Shown here in pieces: positions 2,607-29,226 of a stretch of DNA of 64,000 nucleotides. Within the stretch, counting starts at the first letter, position 1; every line of letters begins with the position of its first letter. Under the pieces are notes generated by a model that was not told the DNA's origin, ran no database searches, and worked only from the letters and a program-made list of their open reading frames with translations. The DNA lies in the sequence record DRR723986_5691. The stretch is one strand, 5' to 3'. A program made the position numbers and the translations under genes.

Positions 2607-2635
2607 AAAACCGGGCTGGTTCATAACCAGCCCGG
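2607..2635 (-). terminator. Rho-independent terminator of the aldo/keto reductase gene
   Basis: CCGGGCTGGTT-cat-AACCAGCCCGG stem followed by TTTT on the minus strand. Confidence 0.75.
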
Positions 2636-2691
2636 CCTCCGATCTGCAGATGATTCTCTAAAAAGATTTATCGATCAGGAAGTTACACCCG

Positions 2692-3744
2692 TTACGGCGC
2701 CGGATTGCCGAATTCCTGATGCAGCGCATCGATTTTCTCCAGAACATCGGCACTCAGCGTAACGTCCGCAGCTCCGATGTCGGTATCGAGCTGCTCAATG
2801 GTCGTCGCACCCAGGATGACCGATGTCATGAAAGACCGCGACATGGCAAAGGCAAGTGCCATCTGCGACGGATCAAGTCCCGCCTCCTGCGCCAGGTCCA
2901 GATAGGCATCGACCGCCTCGATGGCGCGCGGGTGCTCATAGCGCTGCAGGCGGTTGAACAGCGTCTTGCGGGCACCTGCCGGAAGGGCGCCATTGCGGTA
3001 TTTGCCCGTCAGATATCCCTGGGCCAGTGCCGAATATCCCAGAAGACCGACATCTTCCCGGCGGGCAACTTCCGCAAGGCCGGTTTCGAATGTCCGGTTG
3101 ACCAGGGAATACGCGTTCTGGATCGAGACGACCCGCGGCACGTCATACATCTCGGACGCGGCGACGTAGCGCATCGTGCCCCAGGCACTCTCGTTGGAGA
3201 CTCCGACGTGACGGATTTTGCCGGCCTTGACCAGATCCCCAAGGATTTCCAGCGTCGACTGGATGCTGTTTTCGTCCGGAGCCGGTTCGACATCCGCCCA
3301 GCGCGTCGGGTTTGAACCGAAGCCGCCGACGTTCCGGTCCGGCCAGTGGATCTGGTAGAGGTCGATATAGTCTGTTTCCAGGTTCTTCAGGCTGCGGTCG
3401 ACCGCAAATTCGATCTCTTCGCGAACCAGTTTCGCCTTCGCACCGTTTTCACGGAACCAGTCCATGTCGGTCCGCCCGACCACCTTGGTGGCCATGACGA
3501 TCTTGTCCCGCATGCCGGTTTTCTTGAACCACGTGCCGACGATGCGCTCGGTCCGGCCCTGGGTCTCTTTCTTCGGCGGGATCGGATAAAGTTCTGCCGC
3601 GTCAAAGAAATTGATGCCTTTTTCCACGGCGTGGTCCATCTGGGCGTGACCTTCGGCCTCGGAGTTCTGCTCCCCGAAGGTCATGGTACCGAGGCAAAGG
3701 GCGCTGACCTGTATATCCGTGCGGCCAAGACGGCGCTTTTCCAT
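2692..3744 (-). CDS. NADP(H)-dependent aldo/keto reductase, Tas-like
   Basis: LCLGTMTFGEQN, DAAELYP, DYIDLYQIHWP, SIQNAYSL motifs. Confidence 0.9.
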   Translation of the reverse strand: MEKRRLGRTDIQVSALCLGTMTFGEQNSEAEGHAQMDHAVEKGINFFDAAELYPIPPKKETQGRTERIVGTWFKKTGMRDKIVMATKVVGRTDMDWFRENGAKAKLVREEIEFAVDRSLKNLETDYIDLYQIHWPDRNVGGFGSNPTRWADVEPAPDENSIQSTLEILGDLVKAGKIRHVGVSNESAWGTMRYVAASEMYDVPRVVSIQNAYSLVNRTFETGLAEVARREDVGLLGYSALAQGYLTGKYRNGALPAGARKTLFNRLQRYEHPRAIEAVDAYLDLAQEAGLDPSQMALAFAMSRSFMTSVILGATTIEQLDTDIGAADVTLSADVLEKIDALHQEFGNPAP

Positions 3745-3822
3745 AAGACTATCCTTCAAATTTTGAAAACGGGGCGTCCCGGAAGCCGGATCGGCTTCCT
3801 CCCCAGGTCCAGAGCAAAGCCC

Positions 3823-4494
3823 CTAGGATCGGGCTTTGGCCAAAAGCTCTTCCACTTTCGGCAAAATGTTTTCGACGATGACTTCCACCCCTTTGGCGTT
3901 GGGATGCATACCGTCGGAAAGGTTGAGATCGGGATTGAGGGCGGCACCCTCGAGGAAGAAGGGATAAAACAACGCATCGTGCGCCTTGGCAACATCGGAG
4001 TAGATCGGATCGAATGCCTCGGCATATTCCGGCCCAAGATTGCGCGGAGCCAGCATGCCCGCGACAAGCACGGCAACGCCGCGTTCCGTCAGGCGCCGGA
4101 CGATTTCGTCGATATTCTTGCGCGTCAGCTCAGGAGAGATCCCCCGCAACGCGTCGTTTGCTCCGAGTTCCACGATGACGGCACTGGTGTCCGGTCCCAC
4201 CGACCAGTCCAGCCGCGACAGCCCGCCGCTTGACGTGTCGCCAGACACGCCGGCATTGACGACCTCGACCGATTGCCCCTTCGCATCAAGCGCTTTCTGG
4301 AGCTGATCCGTGAAGCCCTCTCCTGCCGACAGCTGATAGCCGGCGGACAGACTGTCCCCCAGCACCACCAGTTTCAGATCGGCCGACTGGGCGGCCATTG
4401 GCAGGAAAGACAGGATGATTATCGTCAGGCAGGCAATAAACCGGTTCACGTGAACACTCTTTTGGGACTGGAAGACGCTCTTCAACAGGCCCAT
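3823..4494 (-). CDS. tesA: Arylesterase / acyl-CoA thioesterase I (GDSL/SGNH family); start uncertain
   Basis: GDSLSAGY, NAGVSGDT, ELGANDALRG, DGMHPN blocks; signal peptide. Confidence 0.88.
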   Translation of the reverse strand: MGLLKSVFQSQKSVHVNRFIACLTIIILSFLPMAAQSADLKLVVLGDSLSAGYQLSAGEGFTDQLQKALDAKGQSVEVVNAGVSGDTSSGGLSRLDWSVGPDTSAVIVELGANDALRGISPELTRKNIDEIVRRLTERGVAVLVAGMLAPRNLGPEYAEAFDPIYSDVAKAHDALFYPFFLEGAALNPDLNLSDGMHPNAKGVEVIVENILPKVEELLAKARS

Positions 4495-10929: not shown

Positions 10930-11070
10930 CATACCCTGATGGGTATGGCCCGTAGAAGCCGCGGAATGCATTAGCCCCCCAGCCCCCCGGGGTTTTTACT
11001 GGCCAACCAGATTTAGTGAGTCAAACATCAGGGCAACTGAAGGGCCGGCATTATGCCGGCCCTTTTCATT
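10930..11070 (+). ncRNA. Candidate small RNA (possibly BjrC1505-like; family from memory, unverified)
   Basis: No credible ORF; promoter-like motif upstream; CCCTGATG (10934-10941) pairs with CATCAGGG (11026-11033); C-rich GCCCCCCAGCCCCCC tract; terminator at the 3' end. Confidence 0.6.
11040..11070 (+). terminator. Rho-independent terminator (sRNA; may also serve the convergent MocR gene)
   Basis: AAGGGCCGGCA-tta-TGCCGGCCCTT followed by TTCATT. Confidence 0.8.
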
Positions 11071-11100: not shown

Positions 11101-12498
11101 CTACTTCAGAAAATCCCTGAGGAACGACAGGAACCGCGCATCGGTTCCATAGGCCACATTGACCCGCATTGCCGGCTTCTGCCGGTTCTCCCGGTTCGGA
11201 TAGAAGACGGCGCCCGGTGCAATGAAGATGCTTTGCTTGCTGGCTGCGGCGCATAGTTCCCTTTCATCCACATCATCGGGAAACTCCACCCAGAGATAGA
11301 ACCCGGGTATGGAACACTCACGCACGGACAACCCGATCGCCTCCAGTGTCCCGAAAGACGCCTTGTAGGCATCTTCCACCCGGCTCCTGAGACGCCGCAG
11401 ATGTCTCAGATAATGGCCGGCCTGCATCAGATTGAACACGAAGCGTTCGACGTGGTCGGATGAATTGACCACCGTCAGCATCTTGATATCGGCAAGCTGT
11501 CGGATGATGTCCGGATTTCCAGCCACGTAACCGCATCTGAGACTGGCCGACAGTGTCTTGGAAAAGGTGCCGAGATAAAGCACCCGCTCCAGTTGGTCCA
11601 GCGCCGCCAGCCTTGGCAGCGTGGCCGGAAGAATGTCGGCAAGCGCATCGTTTTCAACCAGGAGAAACCCCCAGCGCTCGGCAAGCTGCATCAACCCGAA
11701 TGACCGCGAAGGTGACAGGGAACCGCCGGTCGGATTGTGGCCATGGGACTGGGTGACAAACATCTTCGGCCGGTAAAGAGCGAGTTTGGCGGTCAGGTCT
11801 TCCAGGTCCGGACCGTCCCTGTCCCGCCGGATACCGACAATCTGCACCTTGGCGAAGGTCAGCTTGGAAAAGAGCGGATAATAGCCCGGCTCATCGACAA
11901 AAACCGTATCGCCAGGCTCCGTCAGATGCCGGATGATCAGATCCAGGCCATGGTTGACTCCATGGGTCAAAAGAAGCCCTTGCGGATCGGCCGGGATCGA
12001 CCGCTCCAGCAATTGCATCCGCAGCCGGTCCCTCAGCGGACCATATCCCCACGAACTGCCGTAGCCGAATTCGATCGCTTCGGGAAAGGGCGTCTTGGCG
12101 TTAGCGAAATGGCGGCGCAGCTCCGCCCCCTCCATCCACGACGGCGGCGGGCGCCCATCTCCCGGACGCACTTCATAATGCTGTTCCAGCTGCTCCCGCA
12201 GCAACGACATGCCGTCGACCGCAGCCGTGACATGTGGCGCTGGCGGGGTCTTGGAAGCCGGTCCGACCTGTGACATGTAGTATCCGGAGCCGGCCCGCGC
12301 TTCCAGTAGCCCCCGGGCGACCAGCCGGTCGTAAGCTTCCGCCATCGTGTTTTTCGAAACGCCGTTCTCCCGCGCGGCCTGACGAATGGAAGGCAACCGC
12401 TCAAACGTCTTGTATGCCCCTGCCTCCAGCATCAGCGCGACCTTCTCGACGATCTGATCGACGCGAGACAGTTTCCGACCGCTACCCGTAACCCTCAT
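11101..12498 (-). CDS. MocR/GabR-family transcriptional regulator (GntR HTH + PLP aminotransferase-like domain)
   Basis: RLPSIRQAA...VSKNTMAEAYDRL HTH; HNPTG; GTFSKTL PLP lysine. Confidence 0.92.
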   Translation of the reverse strand: MRVTGSGRKLSRVDQIVEKVALMLEAGAYKTFERLPSIRQAARENGVSKNTMAEAYDRLVARGLLEARAGSGYYMSQVGPASKTPPAPHVTAAVDGMSLLREQLEQHYEVRPGDGRPPPSWMEGAELRRHFANAKTPFPEAIEFGYGSSWGYGPLRDRLRMQLLERSIPADPQGLLLTHGVNHGLDLIIRHLTEPGDTVFVDEPGYYPLFSKLTFAKVQIVGIRRDRDGPDLEDLTAKLALYRPKMFVTQSHGHNPTGGSLSPSRSFGLMQLAERWGFLLVENDALADILPATLPRLAALDQLERVLYLGTFSKTLSASLRCGYVAGNPDIIRQLADIKMLTVVNSSDHVERFVFNLMQAGHYLRHLRRLRSRVEDAYKASFGTLEAIGLSVRECSIPGFYLWVEFPDDVDERELCAAASKQSIFIAPGAVFYPNRENRQKPAMRVNVAYGTDARFLSFLRDFLK

Positions 12499-12562
12499 TG
12501 TCCCTCAAAATTTACTGGGACAGTGCTGCCCATAAATCCAACAACTGTCCCTTGATTGTCCC
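12499..12562. promoter_or_regulatory. Putative MocR operator array
   Basis: TGTCCC at 12499, 12546 and 12557, and inverted GGGACA at 12517, in the divergent promoter region. Confidence 0.6.
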
Positions 12563-12625
12563 AATCATTTTTATGACAGTTTGCCCCATTACGCCAGCAA
12601 ATGGCAATTTCCTTGGGAGGGAAAA

Positions 12626-13657
12626 ATGACCAAAGTAAGTAGACGCAGCCTTCTTGCAGGTGCAGCCGTTGGCGGCACCGCCCTCGCAGCACCGATTGCG
12701 GCCAAGGCACAGGATGCGGTTGAGTGGCGCATGCAGGCTCTCTGGGACGCCGGCACCACACCTTTCGAATTCGAGAAGAAATTTGTCGAGCGCGTCAGCG
12801 AACTGACCGACGGCAACTTCAAGATCACGCTGTTCTCCGCCGGCCAGCTCGTGCCTGCCAACCAGGCATTCGATGCCGTTCGCGCCGGCGCCTTCCAGCT
12901 GATGAAGACCTTCGACGGCTACGAAGCCGGCAAGATCCCGGCATTTGCCTTCACGTCCACCATCCCGTTCGGCTTCCCCGAGTCCGACCAGTATGAAGCC
13001 TGGTTCTACGAAAAGGGTGGTCTGGATCTCGCCCGCGAAGCCTATGCAAGGGCCGGTCTCTTCTACATTGCCCCCACCGTCTATGGCGAAGAGCCGATCC
13101 ACTCGACCGTCAAGATGGAAACCATCGCCGACATGGCCGGCAAGAAGGGCCGCTTTGTCGGGCTCGCTTCCGCGGTCATGGCCGACCAGGGCGTTTCCGT
13201 GACCCCGCTGCCGACGGCGGAAGTCTATACGGCGCTTGAAAAAGGCCTGATCGATTTTGCCGACCGCGGCGATCTCACCGCCAACTACGAAGCAGGCCTT
13301 GGCGAAGTCGCCAAGTTCATCATCCTGCCGGGCGTGCACCAGCCGACCACCGCCACCAGCTATGTCGCCAACCAGGGCGCCTATGACGCCCTGCCGGACG
13401 ACTACAAGGCAGCGCTTGCCGTTGCGGCTCGGGAGATTTCCGGATCGCTGCGCCAGCACATCATGGTGCAGAATGTCGATGTCCTGAAGAAATACGGCGA
13501 ACAAGGCGTCGAGATCATCCAGCTCGACCCGGCCGATGTCGCGGCCAACCGGTCCAAGGCTGTCGAGTCCTGGAAAAAGGCTACCAAGGAAGACGATCTG
13601 GCGAATCGCGTGCTCGCGAGCCAGATTGAGTTCATGACAGCCCTCGGGCTGATCTGA
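12626..13657 (+). CDS. dctP: TRAP transporter substrate-binding protein, Tat-exported
   Basis: SRRSLL Tat motif; WRMQ start, FSAGQLVP, EVYTALEKGLID; GGGAGG RBS. Confidence 0.9.
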   Translation: MTKVSRRSLLAGAAVGGTALAAPIAAKAQDAVEWRMQALWDAGTTPFEFEKKFVERVSELTDGNFKITLFSAGQLVPANQAFDAVRAGAFQLMKTFDGYEAGKIPAFAFTSTIPFGFPESDQYEAWFYEKGGLDLAREAYARAGLFYIAPTVYGEEPIHSTVKMETIADMAGKKGRFVGLASAVMADQGVSVTPLPTAEVYTALEKGLIDFADRGDLTANYEAGLGEVAKFIILPGVHQPTTATSYVANQGAYDALPDDYKAALAVAAREISGSLRQHIMVQNVDVLKKYGEQGVEIIQLDPADVAANRSKAVESWKKATKEDDLANRVLASQIEFMTALGLI

Positions 13658-13728
13658 CCCTTCCTCCCACCGGACGGTAGACGGCACCTCCCTGCCGTCT
13701 GCCGTCCGGTCGTCCTTTCGATCGGCAA

Positions 13729-14247
13729 ATGCTCAGCTTCATGAAATCCGTCAGTTCCATCGTCACCGGCGTCAACCGGTTGTTCTTCCTCCTTGCGGCG
13801 GCACTCATCTTCGCGGTGGTGCCGATCCTGCTGTTCGAAGTGGTCGCAAGATACCTGTTCGATGCGCCGACGGTGTGGGCCATGGAAGCCAGCACGTTGA
13901 TCTTCGGTCCGCATTTCATGCTGGCCGGACCTTACCTTCTGCACCTGAAGGGCCACGTCGCCGTCGACATCTTCAGCGAAAAACTGACGGGATTGCCGAA
14001 AGTGGCTCTCGACGTGTTCTCCTATGCCGTCATTGCGGTGTTTGCAGGCGTTTTTGCCTGGGTCAGCTGGCCGCTTGCAATCAACGCCTACTCCCTCGGC
14101 GAAACCAGCTTTTCCGCCTGGAACCCACCTGTCTGGTGGCTGAAATTCGTCGTGCCGCTTTCCTTTGCGCTCCTGTTTTTGCAGGCCCTTGTTGAAGCCT
14201 ACAACGCAACGCGCCCGGCGCAGGAACAGACGGGAGCAAGCGCATGA
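13729..14247 (+). CDS. dctQ: TRAP transporter small permease
   Basis: 4 TM segments; EVVARYLFDAPTVWA, HVAVD. Confidence 0.9.
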   Translation: MLSFMKSVSSIVTGVNRLFFLLAAALIFAVVPILLFEVVARYLFDAPTVWAMEASTLIFGPHFMLAGPYLLHLKGHVAVDIFSEKLTGLPKVALDVFSYAVIAVFAGVFAWVSWPLAINAYSLGETSFSAWNPPVWWLKFVVPLSFALLFLQALVEAYNATRPAQEQTGASA

Positions 14248-15557
14248 GCTCCGAATTCGTTCTTGCCATCATGTTCGCCAGCCTTGTGGGCCTGCTGCTC
14301 ACCGGCCTGCCGCTTGCCTTCACGCTCGGCGCACTTGCGCTCGTTTTCACGCTAACGCTGTGGGGCCCCGCCGCCCTCTCCGTTACCGTCCTCAACCTCT
14401 ACTCCACCATGACGTCGGAATCGCTCCTCGCGATCCCGCTTTATGTGATGATGGCCAGCATCCTTCAGCGTTCCGGCGTCATCGAAAGCCTTTACCGGGC
14501 CATGGAACTCTGGTCGCGGCGGTTGCCGGGTGGCCTGGCGGTGGGCACCATCGCCATCTGCACGATCATCGCCGCCATGACGGGCATCGTCGGTGCCGCG
14601 GTTGCTGCCATGGGCATGCTGGCCCTGCCCTCCATGCTGAAGCGCAAATATAGTCCGGAGCTCGCGATCGGGACGATCTGCGCCGGCGGAACGCTCGGCA
14701 TCCTGATCCCGCCCTCGGTGATCACCATCGTCTATGCCGTGACCGCACAGGCCTCTATCGGCCAGATGTTCATCGCCGGCGTGGTGCCGGGCCTGCTGCT
14801 CGCCTCGCTCTATATCGGCTATATCGTTCTGCGGTCCGCGCTCAACCCGTCCATCGCCCCGCGTCCGGACAACGACGCCCCGGCCACCTGGGAAGAGCGC
14901 ATTGCCTCGCTGAAATCCCTCATCCTGCCGCTGCTGATCATCGTCGGCGTCCTGGGCACGATCTACATGGGTATCGCAACACCCACGGAAGCAGCCGCCG
15001 TCGGCGTCTTCCTGGCGTTCCTGTCGTCGCTTATCGAGCGCCGGTTCGGCTGGGAGCTCATATCCGGCGTTGCCCTCGACGTGGTCAAGGTGACCGCCAT
15101 GATCCTCTGGATCACCATCGGTGCACGGGCCTTCGTCGCGATCTTCACCGGCACCGGCGGCGCGGACTTCCTCCTGTCCTTCATTCAGGATCTCGATGCC
15201 AACCGCTGGATCGTTCTCGCCATCATGCTGGGCATTCTGTTCTTCCTCGGCATGTTCCTGGACGAAATGGGCATCATCCTCTTGTGCGTGCCCGTCTTCC
15301 TGCCGGTGATCGACTTCCTCGAGTTCGACCGGCTCTGGTTCGGCATCCTGTTCCTCGTTTCGGCACAGATGGCCTACATCTCCCCGCCCTTCGGCTACAC
15401 GCTCTTCTACATGAAGGGCGTCCTGCCGGCCGGCATCGGCATGGGCACGGTCTACCGTGCCATCGTTCCCTTCATCCTGCTGCAAGCCATCGGTATCTTC
15501 ATCTGCGCCCTGTTTCCGGAGCTGGTGTTGTGGCTGCCGCAATCCATGATCAATTGA
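14244..15557 (+). CDS. dctM: TRAP transporter large permease
   Basis: GTLGILIPPS, ATPTEAAAVG, ISPPFG; ATGA overlap with dctQ. Confidence 0.92.
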   Translation: MSSEFVLAIMFASLVGLLLTGLPLAFTLGALALVFTLTLWGPAALSVTVLNLYSTMTSESLLAIPLYVMMASILQRSGVIESLYRAMELWSRRLPGGLAVGTIAICTIIAAMTGIVGAAVAAMGMLALPSMLKRKYSPELAIGTICAGGTLGILIPPSVITIVYAVTAQASIGQMFIAGVVPGLLLASLYIGYIVLRSALNPSIAPRPDNDAPATWEERIASLKSLILPLLIIVGVLGTIYMGIATPTEAAAVGVFLAFLSSLIERRFGWELISGVALDVVKVTAMILWITIGARAFVAIFTGTGGADFLLSFIQDLDANRWIVLAIMLGILFFLGMFLDEMGIILLCVPVFLPVIDFLEFDRLWFGILFLVSAQMAYISPPFGYTLFYMKGVLPAGIGMGTVYRAIVPFILLQAIGIFICALFPELVLWLPQSMIN

Positions 15558-15574
15558 CAGACAGGTTTCCCCCG

Positions 15575-16858
15575 ATGAGTGACGTCACTTCGTCCCGTAT
15601 TGAAGGTTTTCACAAGCTGGACCCGGCCGGCCGGCTCCAGGCAGTCCAGCGCCAGGCGAATCTCGACAACAAGTCCGTCTCCGACCTTGTGGAAGCGGCA
15701 TCCGGAAACATCGAACTGGCCGACCGCCTTGTTGAAAACGCCATTTCTTCCATGTCCATTCCTGTCGGTATCGCGACCAACATGACCGTGGACGGACGGG
15801 ACGTTCTGGTGCCGATGGCCAGCGAGGAATCCTCCGTCATCGCCGCCGTGTGCAACTCGGCCAAGCGCTGCCGGCCGACCGGTGGCTTCAAGACCTCCAC
15901 AAGCGGCCCCCTGATGGCAGCCCAGATCCAGCTTCTGGGCGCAAGCGACCCTGAAAACGTCCGCCTGCAGGTTTTTGAACGCATCGACGACATCCGCACC
16001 ATCTGCGAAGAGATCGATCCGCTTCTGGTGAAGCTTGGCGGCGGCTTCCGTGACCTCGACATAAGGGTCATCGACACTGCCGAAGGACCTATGACCATCG
16101 TTCACATCATCGTCGACACGCGCGACGCGATGGGCGCCAACGCCGTCAACAGTATGGCCGAGGCCCTTGCACCCAAGCTGGAGGAATGGACCGGCGCCCG
16201 CAGTCTCCTGCGGATCCTGACCAACCTCGCCGACCGCCGCGTGGCACGCGTGCGGGCTGTCTGGCCGCTGGAGGAAATCGGAGGTGAAAAGGTTCGGGAC
16301 GACATGCTGTCGGCCTATCACTTTGCCGATGCCGACCCCTATCGGGCAGCCACCCATAACAAGGGCATCATGAACGGCATCAGCGCGGTGGTTCTGGCGA
16401 CCGGCAACGACACCAGAGCCGTGGAGGCAGGTGCCCATGCGTTCGCGTCGAAAGACGGCCGCTACCGCTCGATGTCCCGCTGGGAAAAGGACGGCGACGG
16501 CAATCTTGTCGGCATCCTGGAACTGCCGATGGCTGTCGGACTGGTCGGTGGCGCAACCAAGATCCACCCCACCGCGCAGGCCAACCTGAAAATTCTCGGC
16601 GTGACCACGGCAGACGAACTGGCCCGGATCATCGTTGCCGTCGGCCTGGCGCAGAATTTCGGCGCATTGCGCGCCCTTGCCACCACCGGCATTCAGAAGG
16701 GCCACATGGCCCTGCACGCCCAGAACGTTGCCCTGATGGTGGGCGCGACCGGCGAGGAAATCGACCTGGTGGCCAACGAGCTGAAGTCGCTTGGCAAGGT
16801 GCGGCAGGATCTGGCCGAGGAAATTCTCGCCCGGCTGCGGCAGGGCGCCAACGCCTGA
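15575..16858 (+). CDS. mvaA: Class II (degradative-type) hydroxymethylglutaryl-CoA reductase
   Basis: PMASEESSV, DAMGANAVN, THNKGIMNG, GNDTRAVEAG, GIQKGHMALH. Confidence 0.92.
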   Translation: MSDVTSSRIEGFHKLDPAGRLQAVQRQANLDNKSVSDLVEAASGNIELADRLVENAISSMSIPVGIATNMTVDGRDVLVPMASEESSVIAAVCNSAKRCRPTGGFKTSTSGPLMAAQIQLLGASDPENVRLQVFERIDDIRTICEEIDPLLVKLGGGFRDLDIRVIDTAEGPMTIVHIIVDTRDAMGANAVNSMAEALAPKLEEWTGARSLLRILTNLADRRVARVRAVWPLEEIGGEKVRDDMLSAYHFADADPYRAATHNKGIMNGISAVVLATGNDTRAVEAGAHAFASKDGRYRSMSRWEKDGDGNLVGILELPMAVGLVGGATKIHPTAQANLKILGVTTADELARIIVAVGLAQNFGALRALATTGIQKGHMALHAQNVALMVGATGEEIDLVANELKSLGKVRQDLAEEILARLRQGANA

Positions 16859-17559: not shown

Positions 17560-18126
17560 CTAATAGAGAATTCCGGGATTGCCGAGGATCTGCGGCGGCT
17601 GCGTGCAGTCGAAAGAACCGGCCATGGTATCGGCAGCCTGGCGCGCCAAATCGTTGGCATTCTTGTTGGCCTGGGCATCGATCCGGGCAATCTGGCAGGT
17701 GCCGCCGCCGGGCTGCAGCTGGGTCACGATCAGCACGCTGCCAGTCCTGGACCCCTCATCGAGGCTCGGAAACCAGCGCAGGATGGTCGCAAACGGAACA
17801 CCACCCCTGAGGCGCCATTCCAGCGTTTCGTTGACCGTGTTGAAATTGGGCAGGGTCTGGCCTGCCGCAGGCTCGTTGGCGGCATCGGGACCAAAGGAAA
17901 CGAACATACGCAGGTCGCCCTCGGCAACATAGACACTCGTGCCCTTGTAACCGGCGCACTGCCAGGCACCGCCGAAGGTGCCTTCTTCCTCATCCGGGGA
18001 GGTGATCAGCGGGCAGCTGTCCAAAAGGATCTTGGTATAGGCACTGTCGACCGACGCCGCCCCTGCAGCCTGCAGAGACACAAGCAATCCGCCGAGCATC
18101 AAAAGGGAAACAGTAAGCCGTTTCAT
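17560..18126 (-). CDS. Hypothetical exported protein
   Basis: GGAGGAG RBS, signal peptide, four Cys. Confidence 0.75.
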   Translation of the reverse strand: MKRLTVSLLMLGGLLVSLQAAGAASVDSAYTKILLDSCPLITSPDEEEGTFGGAWQCAGYKGTSVYVAEGDLRMFVSFGPDAANEPAAGQTLPNFNTVNETLEWRLRGGVPFATILRWFPSLDEGSRTGSVLIVTQLQPGGGTCQIARIDAQANKNANDLARQAADTMAGSFDCTQPPQILGNPGILY

Positions 18127-25101: not shown

Positions 25102-25947
25102 ATGCAGACCTTCAAACCCCTGGCCGCAGCGCTGCTGCTCGGCCTTTCAACGCTCCCCTCATCAGCCGGTTCACTCTGGTCAACGGACGGCTTCGACATG
25201 CCTGAATCCGTAGCCTTTGACGCCGCCGGCGACCGGCTCATCGTCAGTGTCATGGAAGGCGCGCCGAATGCGGTCGACGGCAACGGCCATCTGGCGCTTC
25301 TGTCCACGGACGGGAAAATCATAGATACCAAATGGGCAACCGGAATGGACGCTCCCAAGGGACTGGCGCTGATGAACGGCAAGGTCTTCGCGGCTGATCT
25401 CACCAGTCTGCGCGTTGTCAACGCCCAGACCGGCAAATTGCTGCAGTCATTGCCTGCAGAAGGCTCGGTTTTCCTGAACGATGTGACCACCAGCGGCGAC
25501 GAAATCTTCGTTTCCGACATGATGACGAACACCATCTGGCGCTACGCGGATGGCACTTTTGAAAAATGGCTGGAAACCCCTGAGCTCAATCACCCCAATG
25601 GCCTTTACTGGGACAACGGCCGCCTGCTTGTCGGGGCCTGGGGCAAGGGCCTAAAGAACGATTTCACCACTGAAGCACCCGGCAGCCTGCTTGCCATTGA
25701 TCCTGCCACCAAGGCTATCAGCGTCGTGGCGCGGGATATCGGCAACATCGACGGCATCGCACGACTGAACGGCAAGCTCGTCCTCAACGACTGGATCAAC
25801 GGCAAGGTCTTCGAGATTGGTTCTGACGGTACACCGAACGAGATCATGAGCGAACCCGCCGGCCTTGCCGATATTTCCACCCACGATGACGTCCTTTACC
25901 TGCCGCATATGCTGGAAGGCAGGATCGAGGCGGTCAGACTGGACTAG
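25102..25947 (+). CDS. Exported beta-propeller protein (SMP-30/gluconolactonase-like)
   Basis: Signal peptide; repeating PES, PKG, FLND, PNG, IDG, ADI blades. Confidence 0.78.
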   Translation: MQTFKPLAAALLLGLSTLPSSAGSLWSTDGFDMPESVAFDAAGDRLIVSVMEGAPNAVDGNGHLALLSTDGKIIDTKWATGMDAPKGLALMNGKVFAADLTSLRVVNAQTGKLLQSLPAEGSVFLNDVTTSGDEIFVSDMMTNTIWRYADGTFEKWLETPELNHPNGLYWDNGRLLVGAWGKGLKNDFTTEAPGSLLAIDPATKAISVVARDIGNIDGIARLNGKLVLNDWINGKVFEIGSDGTPNEIMSEPAGLADISTHDDVLYLPHMLEGRIEAVRLD

Positions 25948-26194
25948 CACCAGCCCCTGCAAACGCTTCATCGCACGGGTCATGCGGCAAAAACGGGTTG
26001 GGCATCACTTGCCCAACCCGCCCCCTTACCACCTTACAATGTGTGGCCTATCAATTCCTGATGTACGCACCTCAATTTGTGTTACCTTCCACGCAGATTG
26101 GCCCCAGCGTTCGGCAAGTCGAACGCTGGATCAGCCGCCGGGCGAAGACCGGCAGAGCAGGGTCACACAGGGATCAAGGTCGAGGGATAGCGTG

Positions 26195-26842
26195 ATGGAA
26201 GCCTACAAGATCAACCCGGAGTTCGTCATTTCGGATGAGGAAACGCTCCGGAGCCACTATTCCGAGCTATCGCCGCTGGCTGCAAAAAAGTGCCTGAGCG
26301 CGCTGGACAAGCATGCTCGGGACTTCATTGCCCGCTCGCCGTTTCTGTGCCTCGGCACACAGAACAAGGACGGCAAGGCGGATGTCAGCCCGCGTGGCGA
26401 TCCGGTCGGCTTCGTCAAGGTTCTCGACCCGCAAACGCTTGCCATTCCGGACCGTCCGGGAAACAACCGCCTCGACAGTCTGGCCAATATTGTCGCCAAC
26501 CCGAATGTCGGGCTTCTGTTCCTGGTTCCCGGATTTGACGAGACCTTGCGCGTCAACGGCATGGCAACGCTTGTAACCGATCCGGATCTTCTTCAAACCA
26601 TGAGCGTGAAGGACCGCGCGCCCAGGCTCGCCATTGTCGTGAAAGTGAGCGAGGTCTTCCTGCACTGCGCCAAGGCGTTCCGGCGCTCACACCTCTGGGA
26701 CCCCGAACACCAGCAGGACCGCAGCGAAATGCCGTCGCTTTCCAAGATCATCCTGGACCAGACGACCGGCGCGCCGGATGACGCGGAAATGCAGAAACTG
26801 GATGCGGCGCTGGAGGAGACCTACCGGAAAACGCTTTATTGA
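26195..26842 (+). CDS. Pyridoxamine 5'-phosphate oxidase-like FMN-binding protein (MSMEG_1061 type)
   Basis: DVSPRGD, IPDRPGNNR, ETLRVNG, HCAKAFRRS. Confidence 0.85.
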   Translation: MEAYKINPEFVISDEETLRSHYSELSPLAAKKCLSALDKHARDFIARSPFLCLGTQNKDGKADVSPRGDPVGFVKVLDPQTLAIPDRPGNNRLDSLANIVANPNVGLLFLVPGFDETLRVNGMATLVTDPDLLQTMSVKDRAPRLAIVVKVSEVFLHCAKAFRRSHLWDPEHQQDRSEMPSLSKIILDQTTGAPDDAEMQKLDAALEETYRKTLY

Positions 26843-26934
26843 GCGGATCCCGCACAGCGATTTCACCGGCAGAAGACAGACCGCAGAGGAGCGCTGACGC
26901 TCCCCTGCATCGCTTCATACCCTAAGCGGCAATC

Positions 26935-28332
<1,398 letters not shown>

Positions 28333-28365
28333 TTAGATTATGATATTCAATTGGATTGATATCTC

Positions 28366-29226
28366 ATGCCTGTTCTGGAAATCGCCTTGCTGCGCAGTTT
28401 CATGGAAGTCGCCCGCAGCGGCTCGATCAGCACCGCAGCGCGGCAGGTCGGGCGGACACAATCCGCCGTCAGCATGCAGATGAACCGGCTGGAGGCGATT
28501 GTCGGCCAGCAGATCCTGCGCCGCACACGCGGGGGTGTGGAACTGACGGCAGCAGGTGACAGGTTTCTGGTCCAGGCGGAACGCATTCTTGCCGTCCACG
28601 ACGAAGCACTTGCCACCCTGCCGGGGGCAGGCCTGCATGGTCTGATCAGTTTCGGCTGCCCGGAAGACTATCTGACCGCCTTCTTTCCCGATCTTCTGAA
28701 AGGGTTCGGCGCGCGGCATGGCGATGTCGAGATCGAGGTGGTCTGTGCCCCGACAACGGAATTGCACCTTCAGCTGCAGCGCAGGCGGATCGATCTTGCC
28801 CTGATTTCCGTTCCCGGCGAAGACGCATCCGCCCGCATCCTGAGGCCGGAAAGCTTTGTCTGGGTGGCCAATCGCCCCGACCCGGAGGTCCTGCGAAAGG
28901 ATGTTGTGCCGCTTGCGCTTTCGGCGCCGGACACATTGGACCATCGCGCCGCCCGCAGCGCCATGGACCAGGCAGGCAAGCCCTATCGCATCGCCTTTGC
29001 CAGCAATGGCCTCGCGGGCCTGCTGGCGATTGCCCGGTCCGGCCAGGCCATCAGTGTGGTGACCCGCTCCGCAGTGCCGCACGATCTCCACATCGTGGAG
29101 GCCGGCCTGCCACCACTTCCCGGCATCGGCGTCACGCTGGCCTATGCGTCGCCAAATCCCTCGGCTGCAACGCAGGCATTCGGGGAATTCGTGGCGGAGA
29201 AGCTGCGCAGTCCGGCGACGAGCTGA
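28366..29226 (+). CDS. LysR-family transcriptional regulator, divergent from dgdA
   Basis: N-terminal HTH AARQVGRTQSAVSMQMNRLE. Confidence 0.9.
   Translation: MPVLEIALLRSFMEVARSGSISTAARQVGRTQSAVSMQMNRLEAIVGQQILRRTRGGVELTAAGDRFLVQAERILAVHDEALATLPGAGLHGLISFGCPEDYLTAFFPDLLKGFGARHGDVEIEVVCAPTTELHLQLQRRRIDLALISVPGEDASARILRPESFVWVANRPDPEVLRKDVVPLALSAPDTLDHRAARSAMDQAGKPYRIAFASNGLAGLLAIARSGQAISVVTRSAVPHDLHIVEAGLPPLPGIGVTLAYASPNPSAATQAFGEFVAEKLRSPATS

Follow-up and report, generated by a model that had tools for sequence, protein, structure and literature searches.

The stretch of DNA analysed here comprises 64,000 nucleotides of sequence record DRR723986_5691 (hereafter the window; coordinates are window positions) and carries a block of five genes that joins a MocR-type regulator and a TRAP importer to a predicted degradative hydroxymethylglutaryl-CoA (HMG-CoA) reductase. 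The MocR gene (11101..12498, minus strand) is divergent from dctP, dctQ, dctM and mvaA, which follow one another on the plus strand (12626..16858). This order and orientation, and the 17 bp between the dctM stop codon and the mvaA start codon (ATG, 15575), had been given by the original prediction and agree with the open reading frame (ORF) coordinates. All five products matched the expected families in Pfam and NCBIfam. The regulator combines a GntR winged helix (PF00392) with an aminotransferase-like pyridoxal phosphate (PLP) domain (PF00155, Aminotran_1_2). dctP (12626..13657) encodes the TRAP solute-binding protein (PF03480, E 2e-42); the longest ORF opens at 12581, and the likely start is the ATG at 12626 behind a GGGAGGG ribosome site. 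The small membrane subunit dctQ (13729..14247; PF04290) and the large permease dctM (14244..15557; PF06808; TIGR00786, 318 bits against a cut-off of 268) overlap by 4 bp and are separate genes, as in TRAP systems of the DctPQM type. mvaA (15575..16858) was assigned to the class II, NAD-type degradative reductases by its matches to Pfam HMG-CoA_red and NCBIfam TIGR00532.

The limits of the block were set by comparison with a sister genus of the same family, in which ppa, a GNAT gene and a DUF2794 gene are contiguous; in the window, the five genes intervene between DUF2794 and GNAT. The module therefore comprises exactly these five genes, the downstream GNAT gene belongs to the backbone, and the block was gained or lost as one unit in a single indel between backbone genes. 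Direct repeats flanking the block amounted to short, chance-like matches. The gene directly 3' of mvaA in the window is the GNAT gene and not an HMG-CoA lyase, as it would be in an mvaAB-type arrangement. Pfam searches of neighbouring ORFs (2.7-31.8 kb) gave no lyase, HMG-CoA synthase or GHMP kinase, and a tblastn search of all 64 kb with lyase, HMG-CoA synthase, thiolase, lactonase, CoA-transferase, TctA and LIV-type binding protein queries returned four self-hits and nothing else; the earlier statement that no mevalonate kinase, HMG-CoA synthase or lyase gene lies adjacent was thus borne out.

Conservation of the linkage, whose absence from other genomes the original prediction had named as a ground for refutation, was examined in 401 genomes sampled evenly from the class, with groups defined by sequence only. 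MvaA was present in 12 genomes (9 genera) and DctP orthologues (E<=1e-80, 67-100% identity) in 6 (5 genera). All six DctP orthologues shared a contig with mvaA, at distances of 61-1963 bp, and none was found in the 389 genomes without MvaA. The eight best MocR matches (44-99% identity) all adjoined mvaA or dctP-mvaA; three weaker matches (38-42%) were located in MvaA-negative genomes beside unrelated neighbours. In a phylum-wide sample of 386 genomes the DctP orthologue was recovered from the nearest genome only, and this sample therefore contributed no independent replicate.

The second survey drew on contigs from one genome per species, took the 80 best MvaA loci and counted neighbours within 6 kb; several loci scored as MocR-negative are contigs of 3-5 kb, too short to reveal a neighbour. 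A MocR orthologue was near mvaA in 16/80 loci, namely 15 of the 31 from Pseudomonadota and one from Gordonia. The importer differed between lineages, and three types were found: orthologous TRAP (DctP at least 60% identical) at 5 loci, TctA-type TTT at 9 and LIV-type ABC binding proteins at 9. The commonest enzymatic neighbour was HMG-CoA lyase (13/80); three of these lyases, scored on NF004283, reached 370-459 bits, all above the cut-off of 246. An SMP-30-type lactonase was near mvaA at two of the 80. HMG-CoA synthase and/or thiolase occurred at 16 loci, all from Chloroflexota or archaea, and MocR was present at none of these. The gene linkage is not due to chance and recurs in independent lineages, which supports the five genes being a functional unit.

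Against TIGR00532 (HMG-CoA reductase, degradative, equivalog) MvaA scored 436.9 bits, with a cut-off of 259.95. Its closest solved relatives are the reductases of Pseudomonas mevalonii (1QAX, E 5e-134) and Delftia (6DIO, E 3e-130). Glu83, Lys267, Asp283, His381 and Asp146, with positions counted in the 1QAX alignment, are all retained, in keeping with the earlier observation that the catalytic Glu, Lys, Asp and His motifs are intact. In P. mevalonii HMG-CoA reductase we take Asp146 to be the determinant of NAD preference, Asp283 to be catalytic, and Arg261 and Asn271 to contact mevalonate or HMG; read from the same alignment, equivalents of the last two are also kept. Glu83, Lys267 and His381 are named as catalytic residues of HMG-CoA reductase in an excerpt of PMC7503714. 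These features support the assignment of MvaA as a probable oxidative, NAD-type, non-biosynthetic reductase.

The metabolic setting was taken from the nearest genome (G001; 99% complete, module proteins 99-100% identical), in which HMG-CoA lyase and genes of the methylerythritol phosphate (MEP) and mevalonate routes were sought, as the original prediction had proposed. IspH was present, indicating the MEP route. Models for mevalonate kinase and diphosphomevalonate decarboxylase gave no match in this genome, and its best score for HMG-CoA synthase was 33 bits against a cut-off of 360. The sole HMG-CoA lyase of this genome is 219 kb away, in a leucine-catabolism cluster with a TetR regulator, methylcrotonyl-CoA carboxylase and enoyl-CoA hydratase. 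With IspH present, the biosynthetic mevalonate genes absent and a lyase elsewhere, the reductase can have no part in isoprenoid synthesis, and a way onward exists for its product.

DctP carries the signal region SRRSLL...AKA of a twin-arginine-type signal peptide, as expected of a TRAP binding protein. Among solved structures it is closest to the lactate-binding TTHA0766 (2ZZV, E 4e-67) and next closest to TakP, a 2-oxoacid binder. Pocket residues were compared with the TakP list in an excerpt of PMC1839085, in an alignment of 13 rows: the DctP of the window with 9 orthologues, plus 3 less similar TRAP proteins likewise encoded beside mvaA. The carboxylate-holding Arg and Tyr of TakP are kept: Arg176 of DctP corresponds to TakP Arg177 and is invariant in 13/13 rows, and Tyr99 corresponds to TakP Tyr100. 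The cation-holding acidic and amide positions of the same excerpted list are likewise kept, with Gln156 replaced by Glu. The pocket lining is altered at five positions (TakP numbering: V97 to F, Y99 to G, T153 to Y, A212 to F/I/L, W215 to R), and four of the five are invariant in all ten mvaA-linked orthologues, position 212 being F, I or L. The residue signature is steady across these ten, apart from conservative changes at 212 and two other listed positions. Among the matches listed (120 DctP relatives), names, where given, were all generic, and the closest named relatives were from Roseibium. Membership of DctP in the lactate/2-oxoacid group of TRAP binding proteins, which take monocarboxylates, is supported, and the predicted pocket would suit a monocarboxylate that is neither lactate nor pyruvate; the pocket by itself does not give the identity of the ligand.

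MocR has the architecture of its subfamily, an N-terminal GntR winged helix-turn-helix and a fold-type-I aminotransferase-like domain with a PLP lysine (Lys314, within TFSK, aligned to the PLP lysine motif of PH0207). It scored below the cut-off of every named NCBIfam subfamily tried (PdxR, GabR, EhuR, rhizopine MocR, PtsJ and YczR); the best score was for PdxR (223 bits against 320), and the others were further below theirs. Lys314, the cofactor-site Asp, Asn, Tyr and Arg, and the C-terminal carboxylate-binding Arg are invariant in 22/22 mvaA-linked MocR orthologues.

The MocR-dctP intergenic region (127 bp) contains an inverted repeat, TGTCCC-N12-GGGACA (12499..12522), flush with the upstream side of the MocR start codon and a putative MocR operator, and two additional direct half-sites, CTGTCCC and TGTCCC (12545..12562). 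The TGTCCC-N12-GGGACA layout recurs beside MocR in alpha-, beta- and gammaproteobacterial loci, with half-sites TGTCCC or TGTACC/TGTGCC. Of 22 MocR-side regions, 16 carried the pattern, where shuffles gave a total expectation of 0.18; it was written after the sites had been seen, so these figures overstate significance, and the conservation is plain nonetheless. Loci that missed the pattern had degenerate copies, and one site was lost to the edge of the region scanned. An AACTGT[AC]CCTTG element occupies the same relative place in most MocR-linked loci by visual comparison. The strict pattern gave two matches in the nearest genome, as did the reversed control. The second match, whose neighbours are an M23 peptidase gene, a YhdP-like gene and tyrS, was taken as chance; with the local site and one likely chance match as its entire yield, the MocR regulon appears to be local.

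The history of the module was followed on a tree of 89 MvaA sequences, in which MocR-linked MvaA falls into two well-separated clades. Clade 1 (18 rows, SH-aLRT 95) contains the window and has 10 MocR-linked rows; clade 2 (12 rows, SH-aLRT 100) is MocR-linked throughout and is sister to a biosynthetic Chloroflexota clade. The same DctP and MocR orthologues accompany both, in the order dctPQM-mvaA in clade 1 and mvaA-dctPQM in clade 2. The MvaA proteins of Gordonia (locus L053, an actinomycete) and Pseudomonas nabeulensis (L076, a gammaproteobacterium) are fully supported sisters, both with MocR and TctBA, which suggests transfer of a whole module between phyla. HMG-CoA lyase lies directly 3' of mvaA in Breoghania, Stappia, genome G168 and P. 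nabeulensis.

Other arrangements around mvaA were recorded alongside these. A second TRAP system (26-31% identical) adjoins mvaA in other alphaproteobacteria (L007, L097 of genome G382, and L017) and may be a TRAP importer that was recruited independently; G382 also has an aldehyde dehydrogenase gene divergent from mvaA. A MocR-less MvaA clade is associated with a family III CoA-transferase (L021, L027, L031, L034, L041, L044 and L046), often with HMG-CoA lyase and enoyl-CoA hydratase and, in L034, with a GAF-PucR regulator; it may belong to a different HMG-related pathway. At the Breoghania locus (L003), a gene with phage tail-collar domains occupies positions 2609-4321 of that locus, at the expected place of MocR upstream of dctP.

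A self-contained, horizontally mobile module for the use of external mevalonate is the best explanation of the block. Specifically, we favour import of mevalonate by the TRAP system, NAD-dependent oxidation to HMG-CoA and cleavage by the distant leucine-cluster lyase, at a probability of about 0.6. DctP, exported by the Tat route, would bind the carboxylate of (R)-mevalonate through Arg176, Tyr99 and a bound cation, and uptake would proceed through DctQM. MvaA would then convert mevalonate, CoA and 2 NAD+ to (S)-HMG-CoA, which the lyase of the leucine cluster would split into acetyl-CoA and acetoacetate; cleavage is assigned to that enzyme because the module variant here has no lyase of its own. 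The divergent MocR would bind the TGTCCC/GGGACA repeats of the intergenic region and switch the operon. Lyase and, at times, lactonase beside mvaA in relatives are as expected of a mevalonate/mevalonolactone pathway, which they support, and the lactonase in two relatives suggests that mevalonolactone may also be a source. The original prediction had read the locus as a putative uptake and catabolism system for mevalonate or a related hydroxy acid, perhaps from eukaryotic or algal hosts. The functional unit is supported, with a probable oxidative reductase and a DctP of the monocarboxylate branch; mevalonate as the ligand is what we infer, and the eukaryotic or algal source stays a suggestion.

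Several observations weigh against this reading. An own lyase is missing here and in 3/5 other annotated TRAP-linked genomes (G360 excluded). MocR has no orthologue in 4 of the 12 MvaA-positive genomes of the 401-genome sample, and in Breoghania, which has TRAP, mvaA and lyase in a row, none lies within 8 kb. The closest solved binding proteins take C3 acids and not a C6 dihydroxy acid. The oxidative reductases of Burkholderia and Delftia are reportedly still described by their authors as having no known physiological role. Mevalonate is nitrogen-free, and the PLP site of this MocR is intact throughout; where the effector of a MocR regulator is known, it is an amine or PLP (excerpt of PMC5320631). 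Public RNA libraries were available as assembled contigs, which neither show nor refute co-transcription. In one run, from one relative, contigs end at 15572 and resume at 15608, which is the dctM-mvaA junction. In another run, one contig extends from 12617 through dctP, dctQM, mvaA and GNAT, with the MocR side on a separate, tenfold deeper contig; a third run gave a single 85-kb contig.

The conflict over the sensor bears first on an alternative in which the same machinery serves another substrate, a 3-hydroxy or omega-hydroxy acid or an amine-bearing analogue as the true MocR effector, with the matching acyl-CoA being made. It has weight because the PLP sensor is intact: the PLP site is fully conserved, and amines or PLP are the effectors known for the family (PMC5320631, excerpt). 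The DctP pocket differs from those of lactate and pyruvate binders at five lining positions and is therefore no direct pointer to mevalonate, and many module variants are without a lyase. Set against this, MvaA scores as an equivalog of the degradative reductase and keeps the catalytic residues together with the Arg261 and Asn271 equivalents, and the lyase is the commonest enzymatic neighbour of mvaA. The original prediction had itself suggested an amino-containing analogue. Gene content gave that suggestion no support, since the annotated mvaA loci showed no conserved neighbour of the aminotransferase, deaminase or amine oxidase type; it keeps some weight through the PLP-binding residues retained in 22/22 orthologues. 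We consider a different substrate unlikely, though worth keeping in view.

For mevalonate as the effector, it is possible, if doubtful, that MocR senses a nitrogen-free acid, mevalonate or the intermediate aldehyde mevaldehyde docking on the conserved, carboxylate-binding Arg445 by PLP and the domain closing without an external aldimine. This would be sensing chemistry new to the MocR family.

A far weaker alternative reverses the flux: MvaA would reduce leucine-derived HMG-CoA to mevalonate, the TRAP system would take up a branched 2-oxoacid, and MocR would sense the matching amino acid. The kinship of DctP with the 2-oxoacid binder TakP, the LIV-type binding proteins that stand in for DctP in some lineages, the suitability of a PLP sensor for an amino acid and the location of the only lyase in a leucine cluster would all be accommodated. 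The nearest genome, however, offers no mevalonate-using enzyme (kinase and decarboxylase are absent) and has the MEP route; Asp146 matches NAD-type oxidative enzymes; a lyase beside mvaA, as in relatives, would compete for HMG-CoA; and the hydrophobic pocket residues of TakP are replaced in DctP. A reductive role is accordingly very improbable. That the genes are mere neighbours without a common function is scarcely credible, given that 6/6 DctP and 8/8 MocR orthologues lie beside mvaA in the 401 genomes, that the block was gained or lost whole and that an operator is common to the loci.

The proposed chemistry has been described before; what is new is the importer, regulator and operator that go with it, and its spread as a module. 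On mevalonate, P. mevalonii grows by means of an oxidative HMG-CoA reductase (excerpts of PMC13412983 and PMC7503714). As in its mvaAB operon, a class II NAD-dependent reductase appears, from its sequence, to be used oxidatively, 1QAX being the closest solved relative of MvaA, and loci of relatives place the lyase directly after mvaA, in the position of mvaB. The module here differs in lacking the lyase, in joining a TRAP importer to the operon and in having a divergent MocR; we know of no transporter or regulator gene described for P. mevalonii. MvaA is also a close sequence relative of the orphan oxidative class II reductases of MEP-only proteobacteria, such as those of Delftia acidovorans (6DIO) and Ruegeria pomeroyi, to which the Burkholderia cenocepacia enzyme presumably belongs as a further member. 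Studies of these reductases are enzymological, with no account of genomic context in the portions accessible; the module described here gives an importer, a regulator and an onward route. The enzymes prefer NADH (PMC12292504, excerpt).

DctP shares with TakP and TTHA0766 the fold family, the carboxylate-binding Arg177 and Tyr100 equivalents, the acidic cation ligands and the Tat-type signal; it differs in its pocket lining and in that its orthologues occur beside mvaA only (401-genome sample). The regulator resembles GabR, PdxR, EnuR/EhuR, TauR and OapR in domain architecture, PLP lysine, divergent placement and short repeated half-sites as operator, and, unlike them, would control a pathway without a nitrogen compound or PLP enzyme. 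Literature searches found no paper linking mevalonate with TRAP transporters or MocR with mevalonate or hydroxymethylglutaryl, and no gene-level description of the module among papers on mevalonate transport or utilisation. The MocR regulon survey PMC5320631, whose supplementary regulon tables might list the pairing, contains none of the terms HMG, mvaA and mevalon in its main text, and the review PMC13001223 has no mention of degradative, mevalonii, catabol, orphan, transporter or lyase. Mevalonate biosensors found in the literature, so far as the accessible text extends, are engineered AraC-type sensors or auxotrophs.

Further features of the locus were noted. The dctP-dctQ gap contains an 18-bp perfect stem-loop (13669..13710, plus strand; -38.3 kcal/mol, z -6.0) that 0/200 shuffles matched in folding and that has no second copy elsewhere in the 64 kb; the hairpin may stabilise the mRNA or terminate transcription in part, and so raise dctP over dctQM. 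An Rfam scan of 10.5-18.5 kb gave no match at E<=0.1. In a promoter and terminator scan of the region, sites were no more numerous than in shuffles, and no terminator-like site was found 3' of mvaA, where the following 150 nt fold no better than shuffles (z -0.6). At 11039-11065, just past the MocR stop codon in the MocR-DUF2794 gap, one edge of the inserted block has a 12-bp GC-rich hairpin. The gap that separates GNAT from ppa contains a 188-aa ORF (17560-18126, minus strand) with coding-like third-position GC content, to which neither Pfam nor NCBIfam gave a match. This ORF is conserved at 95% in the nearest genome, but the corresponding gap of the sister genus lacks it. At 25865-29226, a gene for a protein with a pyridoxamine-phosphate-oxidase-like domain adjoins a class III aminotransferase gene and a divergent LysR regulator.

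Breakdown of mevalonate by a reversed HMG-CoA reductase has so far been a textbook case of one organism. If the reading favoured here is true, it would be a portable pathway, carried by about 3% of the genomes sampled from the class and occurring in beta- and gammaproteobacteria and actinomycetes as well, and the loci would provide the first gene-level candidates for bacterial mevalonate importers, from three transporter families, and for a regulator and sensor. The orphan oxidative reductases of MEP-route bacteria would thereby gain a physiological role open to test, and a concrete question arises, namely how a PLP-type sensor controls a nitrogen-free pathway. If MocR does sense mevalonate, MocR and DctP would be a natural mevalonate sensor and binding protein, the latter from a scaffold family that is already a source of lactate biosensors; for metabolic engineering, the use would lie in a natural mevalonate-responsive regulator or in a mevalonate-binding relative of the lactate-sensor scaffold TTHA0766.

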